Below are positions 19,617 through 64,000 of a DNA stretch of 64,000 nt, one piece after another. Positions within the stretch are counted from its first letter, which is position 1. The number at the start of each line of letters is the position of its first letter. The position numbers and the translations under genes are program-made. The notes beneath the pieces were generated by a model, which made no database searches, had not been told where the DNA came from, and was given only the letters and a program-made list of their open reading frames with translations. This DNA comes from a phage, in the sequence record NC_100327.1; one strand, given 5' to 3'.

Positions 19617-19693
19617 TGGTCTCCACGGAGTGATTCGAACACTCGACCTCCTGATCCCAAATCAGGCGCTCTACCAAGCTGAGCTACGCGGAG
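19617..19693 (-). tRNA. tRNA-Pro (anticodon TGG)
   Basis: Hand-folded cloverleaf: 7-bp acceptor with C1-G72, D-arm, anticodon loop TTTGGGA, T-loop TTCGAAT, encoded CCA. Confidence 0.75.
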
Positions 19694-19703
19694 TATTTAT
19701 TAT

Positions 19704-19779
19704 TTGGTGGCCCTGGGTGGAATTGAACCACCGTCTGGCGATTATGAGTCGCTTGCTTGAACCTTCCAGCTACAGGGCC
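19704..19779 (-). tRNA. tRNA with CAT anticodon (Met, or Ile if lysidine-modified)
   Basis: Acceptor GGCCCTG/CAGGGCC, anticodon loop CTCATAA, T-arm GGTGG-TTCAATT-CCACC, CCA encoded. Confidence 0.75.
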
Positions 19780-19780
19780 A

Positions 19781-19856
19781 TGGTGCTGATGGCAGGACTT
19801 GAACCCGCAACCTATTGATTACAAATCAATTGCACTACCGATTGTGCTACATCAGC
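19781..19856 (-). tRNA. tRNA-Thr (anticodon TGT)
   Basis: Perfect acceptor GCTGATG/CATCAGC, anticodon loop TTTGTAA, T-loop TTCAAGT, CCA encoded. Confidence 0.8.
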
Positions 19857-19860
19857 AAAA

Positions 19861-19959
19861 AGGTGCTAGGTGATGGAATCGAACCACCTATGTATTCAAC
19901 GACTACCTCGTCTATTTTCAGGATTAAAAATCCTCGCCCTTGCCAAAGGGCTTACCTAG
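19861..19959 (-). tRNA. aberrant tRNA-like element with Lys (TTT) anticodon loop and ~25-nt insertion
   Basis: About 99 nt: perfect acceptor GCTAGGT/ACCTAGC, D-arm GCCC-TTTGGCAA-GGGC, anticodon loop TTTTTAA, T-arm GGTGG-TTCGATT-CCATC; extra hairpin GACGA-ggtag-TCGTT between anticodon and T arms; 3' end ACC not CCA. Confidence 0.4.
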
Positions 19960-20057
19960 CTCAGTATGTTGACCATGTTGCTAGTCGGCGATGACGACTG
20001 TAACATTTGATAATCCGGTTCTGCTTCCGACTTTCGCTTAATTACAAGGTCAACAAT

Positions 20058-20148
20058 GTGGCGGAGAGTAATGGAATCGAACCATCATCGAGTCATCCTC
20101 AACGGGACGGTTTTCAAGACCGCTTGAGCACCATTGCTCCCTACCCTC
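20058..20148 (-). tRNA. tRNA-Ser (anticodon TGA), type II
   Basis: Acceptor GGAGGGT/ACTCTCC with one G-U, anticodon loop CTTGAAA, long variable arm, T-loop TTCGATT, CCA encoded. Confidence 0.65.
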
Positions 20149-20263
20149 CTTTATAAATTATACTGATAATGACACTGATTTTCGAGCAGTTAGTGACTAG
20201 TATAAACGACGATAAATATCAATGCCATTATCTGTATTATTTATGCATCTAAAAATATAAATT

Positions 20264-20350
20264 TGGTGGGGAGTGGTGGAGTCGAACCACCCGAGTCGCA
20301 ATGACAATAGATTTACAGTCTACACCGCTACCTCTACGGGATAACTCCCC
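20264..20350 (-). tRNA. tRNA-Tyr (anticodon GTA), type II
   Basis: Acceptor GGGGAGT/ACTCCCC, anticodon loop CTGTAAA, long variable arm, T-arm GGTGG-TTCGACT-CCACC, CCA encoded. Confidence 0.75.
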
Positions 20351-20354
20351 AATT

Positions 20355-20429
20355 TGGCACCCCGTACTGGACTCGAACCAGTGTCAACGGCTTAGAAGGC
20401 CGCTGCTTTATCCACTAAGCTAACAGGGC
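20355..20429 (-). tRNA. tRNA-Arg (anticodon TCT)
   Basis: Acceptor with two G-U pairs, D-loop AGTGGATA, anticodon loop CTTCTAA, T-arm ACTGG-TTCGAGT-CCAGT, CCA encoded. Confidence 0.75.
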
Positions 20430-51809: not shown

Positions 51810-52043
51810 ATGAAAGTTAAATTTCTTACAGATTTAGGGTACCCTTCCTTGGTTGACTGTGTTGGTAAAATTGTGGAAGCAAAACGGCTATCTGCAAACG
51901 AGAATGTTGTCCTGGTTAAAGGGAAGGATTTACTAGCTGCAGGTGCAGAGTCTGGCAGGATCTCTCCTGATTATATGTATTACCTATCTTTAAGTAATCT
52001 GCCAGAGCGAGGCGGTAAAGGCCTTGAAGTTGTGGAGGGGTGA
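51810..52043 (+). CDS. small acidic protein, paralog family A
   Basis: 77 aa, ATG with AGGAGG RBS; MKVKFL...VVLVKGKDLLAAGA. Confidence 0.55.
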   Translation: MKVKFLTDLGYPSLVDCVGKIVEAKRLSANENVVLVKGKDLLAAGAESGRISPDYMYYLSLSNLPERGGKGLEVVEG

Positions 52044-55195: not shown

Positions 55196-55477
55196 ATGAA
55201 AAAGATTAACAGTAGTGAAGTCGAGTTTAAACTTGTCGGAAAAGGCACTTACTGGGAAGTTCGTCAAAAGGTATATTTGTTCGGTCTTATTCCTTACTGG
55301 TCTAAATTCTACTGGGGAGCTAACGAGTGGGGAAGATACGCCACCAAATCAATGGCACTTATTGGTATAGCAGAGTACATTGCAGCCAGAGATAGGGTTG
55401 GAGACACTTATTACTATACTGCGGACGATATTCGTAACAGTGTTTACGTCCCACAACCACCTGATGGAGACCGTTGA
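55196..55477 (+). CDS. hypothetical protein
   Basis: ORF track 55190..55477; ATG at codon 3 with AGAGGGAG RBS. Confidence 0.5.
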   Translation: MKKINSSEVEFKLVGKGTYWEVRQKVYLFGLIPYWSKFYWGANEWGRYATKSMALIGIAEYIAARDRVGDTYYYTADDIRNSVYVPQPPDGDR

Positions 55478-55701
55478 TGAAAGTTAAAGTTTTAGATTCA
55501 AGCTTCTATATTGGTCAGGAGCCCTTAGTGGGGAAAGTGTTTACTGCTGTCCCTAACGAAGATTACCCCGACCTTTTAAAAATAAAAGGGGCAGATCTTA
55601 TTGCCGCTGGTGCATCTCAGGAATGCTTTGACAGTCAGTGGACCTACAACTTTGCCCTAGGTGAGGATGTAGAGATAGTGGAGGACAATCATGAAGGTTA
55701 A
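55477..55701 (+). CDS. small acidic protein, paralog family A
   Basis: ORF track 55474..55701; ATG; MKVKVLDSSFYIGQ...LLKIKGADLIAAGA...DVEIVED. Confidence 0.55.
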   Translation: MKVKVLDSSFYIGQEPLVGKVFTAVPNEDYPDLLKIKGADLIAAGASQECFDSQWTYNFALGEDVEIVEDNHEG

Positions 55702-55945
55702 AATTCTTGATTCTAACGTCTACTTGGGACAATCCTTCCTGAAGGGAAAGGTCGTTCCTGCGGTATACTTTGAAGGGTTGCCGTGGGATGATCCTGTTCG
55801 GCAACATCACAGTTATGTAGGCCACAACGTAGTGTTTATCTTAGGAGCAGACCTGATCACCGCTGGTGCACCTGAATATTATTTCGGGGAAGAGTCCTAT
55901 TATGCCTTTGGGGTAGGGTCAGATGCAGATATTGTAGAGCTGTGA
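55691..55945 (+). CDS. small acidic protein, paralog family A
   Basis: 84 aa; MKVKILDSNVYLGQ...VVFILGADLITAGA...DADIVEL. Confidence 0.55.
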   Translation: MKVKILDSNVYLGQSFLKGKVVPAVYFEGLPWDDPVRQHHSYVGHNVVFILGADLITAGAPEYYFGEESYYAFGVGSDADIVEL

Positions 55946-55957
55946 TGGGTAACCGTT

Positions 55958-56356
55958 GTGAAAAATAAACTGTTCAAAGTTACAATGAAAATTCGCGGAG
56001 CTTGGAGCATAAAGCAAGGGCGTATTCCAGAATTTGAGAAAGACTTCTACGTAGTCTCCACCTCGGAGGAGGCTGCATGCTGGCAAGCTGGCTATGCCTA
56101 TGCAAGAACCTGGTACGAAGGATACCAGACTGGGGGCTATGACGGAGAAATTATCAGCAAGGGTGTAGAAGAAATTAATGTGTTGACAAGTGAAAAAGTT
56201 TTTGTTATAGTGCATCCAGATTCCAGAGTGAAGCATTACTGGAATGCCAGAACAAAAACTTGGACACCGTTTGCAGATTCTGCTACACCACTTTTAAACC
56301 AGAAAGCTCTTGACTCTGTCCCGAGCTATGGGGTTGTTGAAGAAAAGCTAAACTGA
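55958..56356 (+). CDS. paralog family B protein (~130 aa)
   Basis: GTG start; C-terminal region HPDSRVKHYWNARTKTWTPF parallels 58163..58558. Confidence 0.5.
   Translation: MKNKLFKVTMKIRGAWSIKQGRIPEFEKDFYVVSTSEEAACWQAGYAYARTWYEGYQTGGYDGEIISKGVEEINVLTSEKVFVIVHPDSRVKHYWNARTKTWTPFADSATPLLNQKALDSVPSYGVVEEKLN
56183..56211 (+). promoter_or_regulatory. sigma70-type promoter inside coding sequence
   Basis: TTGACA - 17 nt - TATAGT. Confidence 0.4.
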
Positions 56357-56670: not shown

Positions 56671-56699
56671 TTGACACAACGCTTCAGATTTAGTATCAT
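56671..56699 (+). promoter_or_regulatory. sigma70-type promoter
   Basis: TTGACA - 17 nt - TATCAT. Confidence 0.6.
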
Positions 56700-56746
56700 T
56701 GTTTTCAAAGAGGGTTTGGTTCCCTCTTCTTTAAAAGGAACACGTT

Positions 56747-57064
56747 ATGCAAATTGAAATCACTGGCAACGTAGAAATCACTGAAGGTATGGTGTCTTTC
56801 ATTTCCCACAAAATGTCTAAGCTGGAGCGTTTGCATCCCTCTGCCAACTATGCACGTGTGAGTGTAAAAGTTGAAAATGATCACCAGGAAGTTATGGCGT
56901 TCATTTTTGACAATTCTGGAAAAGAAGTTATTGCCAAAGCTAAAGGCAGTGATGCTTACGAGGCAACTGACCGTATGGTAGATGTTGCAGCACGTCAGCT
57001 GGCTAAATGCGGTGGAAAGAAAGGTAAGGGGAAAGGCAAAGTAAAGATTGACTTTGGAGAATGA
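56747..57064 (+). CDS. ribosome hibernation factor-like protein (HPF/RaiA/YfiA family)
   Basis: 105 aa; MQIEITGNVEITEG...KLER...VKVEN...AKGSDAYEATDRMVDVAARQLAK parallels E. coli HPF as recalled; Gly/Lys-rich tail. Confidence 0.7.
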   Translation: MQIEITGNVEITEGMVSFISHKMSKLERLHPSANYARVSVKVENDHQEVMAFIFDNSGKEVIAKAKGSDAYEATDRMVDVAARQLAKCGGKKGKGKGKVKIDFGE

Positions 57065-57073
57065 GGTGCTACA

Positions 57074-57175
57074 ATGGGTGTGATTAAGAAATTAGTCCCA
57101 AATGTAGAGATTGCATGCTTTGAAATTATGTTTGCAATCGCAGTTGTAGTTAATGTGTTAGGTTACGGCTATTAA
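57074..57175 (+). CDS. hydrophobic micro-peptide (33 aa, candidate)
   Basis: Found by hand; ATG after GAGGTG; MGVIKKLVPNVEIACFEIMFAIAVVVNVLGYGY. Confidence 0.35.
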   Translation: MGVIKKLVPNVEIACFEIMFAIAVVVNVLGYGY

Positions 57176-57201: not shown

Positions 57202-57471
57202 ATGAAAATTAAATTATTCAAAACTGAGCTGGCAGACAAAAACTGTGGACTGGTTGAAGGTATGATTGTCGAAGCACAACCAGTTGACTATATGAAGGTG
57301 GTTCGTGATGCCCTGGGTGAAGGTTTTGATCTGATGGAGCCAGCTCTGCGAGAAGATGTTATCGAGATGGCTAAAAAGCACACACCTGAAGGCATGGTGG
57401 TGTTTGTTGCACCGGGTAACGGAGAAGAGTTGATTGTAACTCCGGATGTGTATGAGATTGTAGAGGAATAA
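57202..57471 (+). CDS. small acidic protein, paralog family A
   Basis: 89 aa, ATG with GAGGAG RBS; MKIKLFK...MVVFVAPGNGEELIV...EIVEE. Confidence 0.5.
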   Translation: MKIKLFKTELADKNCGLVEGMIVEAQPVDYMKVVRDALGEGFDLMEPALREDVIEMAKKHTPEGMVVFVAPGNGEELIVTPDVYEIVEE

Positions 57472-57830: not shown

Positions 57831-58163
57831 ATGAAAGTACGCTTTATTGGTGAAACAATTCCTGTGCATCTCCGGTCTCCTGAGGATTCTGCAGATCTTG
57901 CATCTCAAAAGGCGAGAGGTTATGATAAGAAAGTAACCTCAACCGATGTAGTGCTTGAGGCTACCAGTCTACCTGACCCTGCTGCATTCTTTAATCATTA
58001 TGGGTACTATTTCAGCAATCTGATGAATATCGGTGAGCTTGTGTTTATTAGTGGTGAAGAGATTGTTAGCAAGCTTGGCGGCGATCCAGATGTCTTTCAT
58101 GAAACCTGTCCTTTTGCATTTGTGGTAGGTTCAGATGTGGAAGTTATTGAGGAGGTGCGGTAA
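57831..58163 (+). CDS. small acidic protein, paralog family A
   Basis: ORF track 57804..58163; ATG (MKVRFIGE) with GGGTGA RBS; LVFISGEEIVSKLGG and VGSDVEVIEE motifs. Confidence 0.5.
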   Translation: MKVRFIGETIPVHLRSPEDSADLASQKARGYDKKVTSTDVVLEATSLPDPAAFFNHYGYYFSNLMNIGELVFISGEEIVSKLGGDPDVFHETCPFAFVVGSDVEVIEEVR

Positions 58164-58558
58164 TGGTAAGCCTATACCGTGTTGAGTATAGCTCAGATAC
58201 TGTATACAACGTAAGAAGCAAAGATCGCAGCGACAGAGTGCAAGAAATGTATGTTCTTGCCGACAGTCCGTTATCTGCAGCGTTCAAGGCAGGGGCTCTT
58301 GCATCTCGTTGGAAATTTGAAGGGGGATCTTTCTATGAAGAAACCCTTGAAGATTCTGTTGTTATTTCTTCTGTAGAGGTTTCAGACGACTACGAAGGGA
58401 AAAAGTTCGTAATGCGGCACCCACACAGCAACATTGCGTACTACTGGGATGTTCTGAACAACGAGTGGACCCCAGATCTTCAGAAGGCTACTGTGCTAAC
58501 ACCGTTTTTGGCAGATAAGTTCCCACCAGAAGGTAATTTATCCGCACTGTTTCAGTAA
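58163..58558 (+). CDS. paralog family B protein (~130 aa)
   Basis: 131 aa, ATG with GGAGGTG RBS; HPHSNIAYYWDVLNNEWTPD parallels 55958..56356. Confidence 0.5.
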   Translation: MVSLYRVEYSSDTVYNVRSKDRSDRVQEMYVLADSPLSAAFKAGALASRWKFEGGSFYEETLEDSVVISSVEVSDDYEGKKFVMRHPHSNIAYYWDVLNNEWTPDLQKATVLTPFLADKFPPEGNLSALFQ

Positions 58559-58576: not shown

Positions 58577-58605
58577 TTGACAACTCCAACCCTGTGTGAA
58601 ATAAT
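58577..58605 (+). promoter_or_regulatory. sigma70-type promoter
   Basis: TTGACA - 17 nt - AATAAT. Confidence 0.5.
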
Positions 58606-62562: not shown

Positions 62563-62912
62563 CGCACAATTAGCTGCCCGGCCAAAGTGCTGGAAGCACC
62601 TATAACACATCTTTCAACTAAATTTCCCACCACCACAATCACTTACCTTCCACACATGACTGTTTGCTTGTTTAGTGAGCAGTCATGCCTTGACATTCTT
62701 GCCTATCCTGATAAAATTAAGTTCTTCTCTTTTCTTTTACCGAGTAATTCGGGTTTTCTGTTCTCTTCGGTTTGAAGGGGTATGGAGATACACCTGAGTG
62801 AACAGGGTGAACAACCGAACCATTGGCTATGGCATTAGCATGGCGAAGCGGACGGGTGACGAAAGAGGGGCCGGAGGACACCAGTCACTGCCATATGATA
62901 TATGGGTGATAA

Positions 62913-63473
62913 CCTGAAGAGTCTGAATAAGTGTTTAAGTACCAGTCAGAGGAAAAGGTGAATGGTAGCCGAAGGGGGGAGGGGGGTTTCTTGTATCTTT
63001 AATTTGTATATTATGTATACACTTGTAAACCAATCTCATCTGAATCTGTTTACCACACAAAGCGAATAGAGACAAATATTACCTATTAAACTTGAATTAT
63101 TTATAGAAAATACCACAACACCACTTAAGTCTTTGATTTTACACACAAATCCTACAGATATTCATCCTCCCTATTTAACATACCTGTAACATATTCCATA
63201 CTCTACCTGCCTGATCAATTTACCCAACCACATCCTCCATATTTTCCCTGTCTGTACTACCCCTGCCCCGCCGGGAGTCCCGTCATATCTGGCTTTCCAG
63301 CAAATATCGCACCCACAAATATCATTGCCTGAAGAGGGTTTCATCCCATAATACATGCCTTACCTGAAGAGCGCTTCATACACCACGTAAATTTTTTAAT
63401 TGACCTGCAATTTTCCCGTCATGACCCCATGCCCCGCCGGAGAGGTTGGCTTTTCCCACACAGACCTGAAGAG
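62913..63473. repeat. dispersed short direct repeats in non-coding DNA
   Basis: CCTGAAGAG at 62913, 63338, 63363, 63465; TGCCCCGCCGG near 63262 and 63430; TTGACCTG near 63400, 63505 and 63847; no credible ORF over ~1.4 kb. Confidence 0.55.
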
Positions 63474-64000
63474 TCAGCCAGAAATATCTGAACAGGCCCA
63501 ATTCTACCACGATTTTGACCTGACCTACAGGAGTGCTGCCAGGCGGACGAAATGGGAATACTTCTCATTCTTATAACAATTCTCAAATATCAAGGCAGTG
63601 AGGCAAATTAATAGGCTAGGCCGTTCACACAGTGGCACAACATTTGCAACCTATCTTGTGGGAGTGAATGAGAATACCTATCATTGTGAGAATAGTTATC
63701 ATTACGGGCAATTTAACATAATACCCATTATGCGCACCACTGGCGATACATACAGGGATTGATAACATGGGTTACTGTTTACGCACATAACAATTATATT
63801 TCTTATTATTTGTGGGGGATATAGTTAGCAGCCAATAGATTAGATATTGACCTGCAGACTTCTGACCGTCCAGACGTCTAAACGCCCACACAACAAGGAT
63901 TATACATACAACACTGAATGTAAACAGGACCGCAAAAATGCTACCATACAAGCTTGTAAATTTTTCATGCAGCACTTGACAAAGAGGAGAAAAACTTGTC

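Follow-up and report, generated by a model that had tools for sequence, protein, structure and literature searches.

The gene at positions 56747 to 57064 of the window (the whole stretch of 64,000 nucleotides of phage DNA analysed here, sequence record NC_100327.1) encodes a 105-aa protein of the HPF/YfiA family, in a diverged form that carries a basic C-terminal tail, and the sole experiment on this protein, a published negative result on ribosome association (PMC6375957), is uninformative on ribosome binding. The source phage is a Vequintavirus, a myovirus resembling rV5. Nothing in the sighting itself is new, as gene, family and promoter have all been described before: the protein has 100% identity with that of rV5 ORF144 (ABI79209, labelled 'sigma 54 modulation factor'); the rV5 GenBank record DQ832317 already annotates both the gene and the promoter P144; the names given to the gene in other genomes include 'ribosome hibernation factor', 'hpf' and 'RaiA'; and ABI79209 appears among the phage HPFs of Mizuno et al. 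2019 (PMC6375957), together with the GAP32 and PBECO4 proteins. A literature search found no later functional work on phage HPF. The present analysis adds the re-reading of the published negative, the recognition of a diverged tail-bearing subtype, and an analysis of its evolution and residues. The features of the locus are the following:

56671..56699, + strand: sigma-70-type promoter (-35 TTGACA at 56671-56676, 17-nt spacer, -10 TATCAT at 56694-56699)
56708..56728, + strand: possible, weakly supported stem-loop at the 5' end of the transcript (AAGAGGG, loop TTTGGTT, CCCTCTT)
56735-56739: Shine-Dalgarno AAGGA, 7 nt before the ATG, read from the sequence and unchanged in 10/10 vequintaviruses
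56747..57064, + strand: ORF of 105 aa with ATG start (translation MQIEITGNVEITEG...KCGGKKGKGKGKVKIDFGE)
56747..57010, + strand: HPF/YfiA (Ribosomal_S30AE) core, codons 1-88, β-α-β-β-β-α (profiles, phmmer, AF2, Foldseek, dN/dS)
57011..57064, + strand: Gly/Lys-rich basic tail GGKKGKGKGKVKIDFGE, codons 89-105 and the stop codon, predicted to be disordered

Membership of the HPF/YfiA family is secure. The protein scored 48.3 bits against Pfam PF02482 (Ribosomal_S30AE; gathering score 23.7) and 45.9 bits against TIGR00741 (HPF/YfiA family; cutoff 40.9). The first-pass annotation, made from the sequence alone, had called the product an HPF/RaiA homologue and proposed a profile search as a check; once run, this search placed the protein above both curated thresholds, and the motifs quoted there fall into the same alignment columns as their counterparts in E. 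coli HPF over residues 1 to 89. The phmmer search against the PDB aligned residues 1-89 with E. coli HPF (2rql, E = 5e-12). The AF2 model (84-sequence alignment, mean pLDDT 82) has the secondary structure E2-7, H13-29, E33-43, E46-55, E60-67, H70-92, corresponding to β-α-β-β-β-α, with block-mean pLDDT values of 85-93 over residues 1-80, 79 over 81-90 and 46 over 91-105 (residues 91-98 are each below 50). The best 35 Foldseek matches in the PDB were all HPF, YfiA or plastid pY structures: V. cholerae HPF 4HEI was the best (TM 0.82, rmsd 1.0 Å), and ribosome-bound E. coli HPF 6H4N was matched at TM 0.81 and 41% identity. The phage protein is not an equivalog of either enterobacterial HPF or RaiA: the enterobacterial HPF equivalog NF007780, its best NCBIfam match, gave 55.8 bits, far under the cutoff of 125, and the RaiA/YfiA equivalog NF007654 gave 17.6 bits, far under the cutoff of 158. 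The long-HPF dimerisation domain PF16321, which the long forms in the family sample do carry, was absent in the Pfam search (PF02482 alone matched, and the protein ends at residue 105).

Compared with the known factors, the protein combines traits of two. E. coli HPF (YhbH; 2RQL, 6H4N, 4V8H) has the same domain, core length and fold (TM 0.81), 41.5% identity from residue 1, and the residues K23, K26, E44, E60, D69, Y71, D75, D79, R83, Q84, K87 and K91 in common with it. It differs in having 6 residues instead of the 17-residue Gly/Lys tail of the phage protein; in K80, K89, T53 and H55, which the phage protein lacks; in one residue of the β1-α1 loop, deleted in the phage protein and kept in Murica-type phages; and in its stationary-phase control, as opposed to the constitutive-type sigma-70 promoter of the phage gene. 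E. coli YfiA/RaiA (protein Y; 1N3G, 4V8I) also consists of an S30AE core with a flexible C-terminal extension and without dimerisation domain, the phage protein has no 100S-promoting effect when expressed, and its NCBI name is 'RaiA'; however, the identity with YfiA is only 23.1%, and the YfiA tail has 24 residues with an acidic end (-3), unrelated in sequence to the basic phage tail (+4). The jumbo-phage HPF-like proteins (Cronobacter phage GAP32 and Escherichia phage PBECO4; phrog_8990) share the S30AE fold (TM 0.68-0.78); they are only 21-24% identical to the protein described here, belong to a different PHROG and come from unrelated phages, and are therefore regarded as independent acquisitions.

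The Gly/Lys-rich tail described in the first-pass annotation is present as CGGKKGKGKGKVKIDFGE, 17 residues with a net charge of +4 that follow the K87-aligned position plus one residue; from the same position, HPF has 6 residues and YfiA 24, with the acidic end (net charge -3). The tail of the only other member of the phage clade (P0004, see below) is also basic, with a different sequence. A +1 G in the purine-rich tail tract of APCEc02 changes the end of the protein to ...GRKKGKGERQSKD, and a -1 A in Murica changes it to ...GKGKAK. The charge of the tail appears to be kept, and not its sequence. The indels of the tail tract (57011-57045) fall in G and A runs, and the APCEc02 variant was found independently in the Logan contig P0003; either genuine variation or sequencing errors in homopolymers may account for them. 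A tail at the corresponding place blocks RMF in the case of YfiA. By analogy, the phage tail leaving the end of α2 would head toward the mRNA channel and the RMF site, like the YfiA tail.

The ribosome-contact surface was compared, in E. coli HPF numbering, using contact-residue lists from cryo-EM work (bioRxiv 10.1101/2025.10.07.680626) and from S. aureus mutagenesis (PMC4889938). In the family, the conserved basic residues of α1 (K23, K26) and of the α2 track (K80, R83, K87, K89/K91) make contacts to 16S rRNA. The fold invariants T13, K23, L27, V39, Q48, A63, D69, Y71, A73, D75, D79 and Q84 are kept, as are the contact residues K23, K26, E44, E60, R83, K87 and K91, together with an R at position 29. 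The contact positions changed were: K80, replaced by V, and K89, replaced by G (K is found at these positions in 87% and 89% of the non-redundant family set, respectively); and T53 and H55, both replaced by F, which in the published lists contact m2G966 and the uS9 C-terminus. Other changes are near-absent in the family (K/R17V, M/L70A and I74T, like K89G, are each found in 0/128 members, and A72E in 2/128), and the phage protein has the signature DAYEATD versus DMYAAID. The phage protein matches 67% of 36 conserved columns, compared to a family median of 81%, which corresponds to the 9th percentile of 45 non-redundant members; P0004 is the family minimum. The losses of K80, K89, T53 and H55 do not in themselves prove a loss of binding: each contact loss occurs singly in genuine family members (the residue at position 80 is non-basic in 4/45, one of them a long HPF; position 89 is Q in E. 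coli YfiA). Of the contact positions, approximately 9/18 are kept between the two phage lineages (counted from the alignment of the phage proteins), no better than the whole protein (64%).

The exhaustive HMMER scan, covering 1.84 billion representative proteins, returned one other member of the phage clade, P0004, with 64-65% identity; next came ordinary cellular HPFs only, with 31-45% identity and E-values of 2.5e-7 or worse. P0004 is encoded in a phage contig of ~126 kb (L002, Logan ERR6997038, 125,761 bp) outside the phage collection, at the same place in a syntenic block of ~20 small genes. It shares V16, G14, A70, E72 and T74 exactly, has F at the H55 position too, and is also without K80 (T), K89 (S) and T53 (R). 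Among vequintaviruses, dN/dS over codons 1-88 was 0.045-0.18, and the gene is therefore under purifying selection; in the comparison with P0004/L002, synonymous sites were saturated (pS 0.79) and dN was 0.26. The 3-kb query around the ORF matched 120 phage records (the best being Escherichia phage pangalan, 99.3%), and the HPF-like gene was found in 118; the orthologues in these ~118 Vequintavirus genomes (phrog_12469) include rV5 ORF144, which has the same P144 and the same neighbours as the gene described here. Since the nearest cellular relatives are only 31-45% identical, the capture of the gene is old, and these comparisons argue for vertical inheritance within the rV5-like lineage under selection, and against the recent capture suggested in the 2019 paper (PMC6375957). 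Contig L002, together with L003-L005, represents a diverged rV5-like lineage whose proteins are 28-87% identical across the syntenic block; at the level of the HPF-like gene, nothing in the phage collection of 50,697 records corresponds to it, and it probably represents a species or genus of Vequintavirinae still to be described. Another sequence from the scan, P0006 (1160 aa, 8 stretches), was discarded after inspection as a repeat protein and probable artefact.

Several annotations in public records are slips or doubtful. The 89-aa ORF at 57202-57471 (+), two genes downstream, was considered as a second HPF and rejected (no Pfam hit); its name 'sigma 54 modulation factor' in APCEc02, which nom, nomo, ECP32 and others have taken over, is a propagated annotation slip. 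In the bov/NWU phages, the true HPF gene carries the wrong label 'ATP-dependent protease La type I'. The host label is doubtful in eighteen records entitled 'UNVERIFIED: Campylobacter phage' (MG065xxx), which are vequintaviruses: those listed have 97-100% identity to the phage described here in the HPF-like protein, and two of the Campylobacter-labelled phages, C15 and A12a, have 98% DNA identity over the 3-kb region.

The TTGACA-17-TATCAT promoter reported upstream of the ORF in the first reading of the sequence was confirmed, with 11/12 positions matching the consensus and conservation across the genus. It corresponds to P144, which the rV5 GenBank record annotates at the matching place (-76 to -48 relative to the ATG), and the end of its -10 hexamer lies 47 nt from the ATG of the HPF-like gene. 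The -35 hexamer is identical in 10/10 vequintaviruses examined and the -10 in 9/10; the -35 is also retained in the L002 lineage, whose orthologue is 64% identical. Between 44 and 64 kb, the coding strand has 8 sites with at least 11/12 matches and the opposite strand 0; as chance would give ~0.36 per strand (first-order Markov model), the promoter is beyond chance expectation. P144 would be recognised by unmodified host sigma-70 RNA polymerase. From the near-consensus sigma-70 promoters and the array of small genes we infer early expression; the rV5 genome paper gives predicted sigma-70 promoters only, and a literature search for time-resolved expression data found none for any vequintavirus. 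The HPF-like gene is probably the first of a small operon extending to the next promoter at 58577. Two other strong promoter-like sites with an extended -10 were observed: TTGACA-17-TATAGT at 56183-56211 (+), within the ORF at 55958-56356; and TTGACT-16-TACAAT at 57048-57075 (+), which overlaps both the last codons of the HPF-like gene and the start of a 33-aa hydrophobic ORF (57074-57175).

The stem-loop at 56708-56728 was rejected as a regulatory RNA element: its fold was no better than that of shuffled sequences (z = -0.37); Murica-type phages have a G to A change in the 5' arm without compensating change; and most of it (the loop and the 3' arm) lies within a 26-nt segment missing from the L002 lineage, in which the shared GAGGG acts as Shine-Dalgarno. 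The Rfam search of the 64-kb window returned tRNAs only, and no other RNA element. ARAGORN called a cluster of seven tRNAs (Pro, Met, Thr, Ser, Tyr, Arg) at 19617-20429 (- strand), one of them a 99-nt 'tRNA-???' at 19862-19960, which has a four-base anticodon according to ARAGORN and an Rfam tRNA score of 35.5 bits. Other observations in the window include: a pair of 131/132-aa paralogues (27% identity, 55958-56356 and 58163-58558, no Pfam hit) flanking the HPF operon; a tandem pair of small genes (55474-55701 and 55691-55945, 42% identity, no Pfam hit) with a third, weaker copy at 51810-52043; and the segment from ~62600 to 64000, with only short ORFs on both strands and an 18-nt, 1.9-copy tandem repeat (63669-63703), which is the start of a 2.6-kb region termed non-coding in the rV5 paper (rV5 104013-106618).

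We re-read the experiment of Mizuno et al. 2019 (PMC6375957), in which the rV5 protein was expressed from pBAD24 in E. coli NM522, and ribosomes were purified through a 500 mM NH4Cl cushion and analysed by mass spectrometry. The viral HPF was present in the crude extract and undetected in the salt-washed 70S/100S fractions; 100S levels and ribosome profiles showed no discernible change on expression; and the authors speculated that viral HPF may compete with the host factor, preventing dimerisation. The supplementary tables contain internal controls that were not discussed in the paper: host HPF and RMF were both found in the crude extract of the cells expressing viral HPF (Supplementary Data 5) and were missing from all three salt-washed ribosome preparations (Data 2, 3, 4). 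As host HPF was likewise missing from these ribosomes, the published negative is uninformative on ribosome binding by the phage protein, and it speaks neither for nor against the suggestion in the first-pass annotation that the phage directly manipulates host translation. Host YfiA was detected in the salt-washed ribosomes of the bS21 sample (1 spectrum) and of the bL12 sample (6 spectra), both of them control-like, and was absent among the 71 proteins of the viral-HPF ribosome sample, yet present in the extract of that strain. This absence is consistent with displacement by viral HPF; it comes from one sample with low counts and may be noise.

The mechanism that we favour, to which we give an even chance, is reversible, YfiA-like binding at the canonical 30S decoding site, with the tail directed toward the mRNA channel, exclusion of the host factors and no promotion of 100S particles. 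The protein, having its own near-consensus promoter served by the host sigma-70 RNA polymerase, would probably be made from the start of infection. We infer that the 88-residue core would dock like HPF and YfiA, entering the 30S decoding channel when the host ribosome is vacant, via K22 and K25 of α1 plus R28, and R83, K87 and K91 of α2, and that the 17-residue basic disordered tail, starting where α2 ends, would point to the mRNA channel and to the RMF site. With K80, K89, T53 and H55 missing, the protein is expected to bind less tightly than the host factors and to come off more readily. Idle 70S ribosomes occupied in this YfiA-like manner would exclude host RMF, HPF and YfiA, and would stay intact and quickly re-usable for phage mRNAs, without promotion of 100S dimers. 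Family membership, fold, the retained contact residues, purifying selection and the conserved promoter count in favour of this mechanism, as does the tail, which matches a YfiA-type extension in length and is basic in the two phage lineages alike; and the absence of a phage-encoded RMF in the phage collection searched, together with the unchanged 100S levels on expression, fits a role without dimerisation. Against it are the published experiment, with no viral protein in the 70S/100S fractions and unaltered profiles (PMC6375957), the loss of K80, K89, T53 and H55, the low match to the conserved columns (67%), the contact positions conserved no better than the whole protein, the scores far under both equivalog cutoffs, and the consideration that an early global inhibitor of translation would also hit phage translation, unless it were weak or selective.

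A related and more tentative proposal is that the protein is a distinct phage-specific HPF subtype, with a remodelled contact surface and a basic tail, that acts as an anti-hibernation factor, binding the decoding site weakly and reversibly, evicting host YfiA/HPF and blocking RMF. If this were true, the ribosomes of slow-growing or defence-arrested cells would stay available to phage mRNAs, and the missing YfiA in the data discussed above (PMC6375957) would be its first trace.

It is doubtful, and somewhat less probable again, that the HPF fold, a dsRBD-like RNA-binding scaffold, was exapted and re-targeted to a host or phage RNA or to a nucleotide signal, with the tail adding non-specific nucleic-acid affinity. 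The clade-specific departures (I74T, M/L70A, K89G and K/R17V, 0/128; A72E, 2/128), all of them shared with P0004 except K89G (S in P0004), would suit such a change of target, as would the lack of preferential conservation of the contact positions between the two phage lineages; on the other hand, K23, K26, R83, K87 and K91 are kept, and single losses are also found in bona fide members (position 80 non-basic in 4/45, Q89 in YfiA). The protein went undetected on ribosomes (PMC6375957), but host HPF failed the same assay. A precedent exists in the Acb4 anti-CBASS sponge (Bacillus phage SPO1, 9E4W), another small phage protein with a related α/β dsRBD-like fold, turned by phages into a cyclic-nucleotide sponge, for which its authors reported structural similarity to V. 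cholerae HPF. However, the sequence homology of the phage protein to HPF is specific and covers the full domain, whereas its likeness to Acb4 is generic (TM ~0.5, Foldseek E ~1e-2), without detectable sequence homology, and Acb4 is a tetrameric ligand-binding assembly; PADLOC also gave no hits. An Acb4-like nucleotide-sponge role, which had been considered from the weak Foldseek hits, was accordingly rejected as a fold-level analogy, and is retained solely within the exaptation proposal.

A true HPF mimic, driving 70S ribosomes together with host RMF into inactive 100S particles and leading to host translation shutdown or ribosome storage, is unlikely. The protein is nearer to short HPF (41.5% identity) than to YfiA (23%), and its best NCBIfam match is the HPF model NF007780, but the score of 55.8 is well below the equivalog cutoff of 125. 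The tail exceeds the HPF tail by 11 residues and lies in the position from which the YfiA tail blocks RMF. RMF was absent from the phage collection; the host supplies it, and it was detected in the crude extract. Expression in E. coli led to no discernible 100S change (PMC6375957). Finally, a neutral passenger, that is, a captured host gene without role in infection, is barely credible: phages are known to acquire host genes by chance, and no phenotype of the gene is on record, but dN/dS is 0.05-0.18, 118 phage records carry the gene versus 120 matching the surrounding region, synteny is kept in a lineage with saturated synonymous divergence, the gene has a dedicated conserved promoter, and cellular relatives no closer than 31-45% identity indicate an old capture.

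The analysis adds no new object; the functional question is moderately interesting and easy to test. Few phage genes act directly on the ribosome. Dormancy-type outcomes of anti-phage defence are increasingly tied to ribosome hibernation; RMF, for instance, is induced under DRT2 defence (PMC13434031). A phage factor that enters the HPF/YfiA site could reveal the means by which virulent phages obtain translation capacity when the host is stationary or stressed, which would be relevant to phage therapy against non-growing bacteria.
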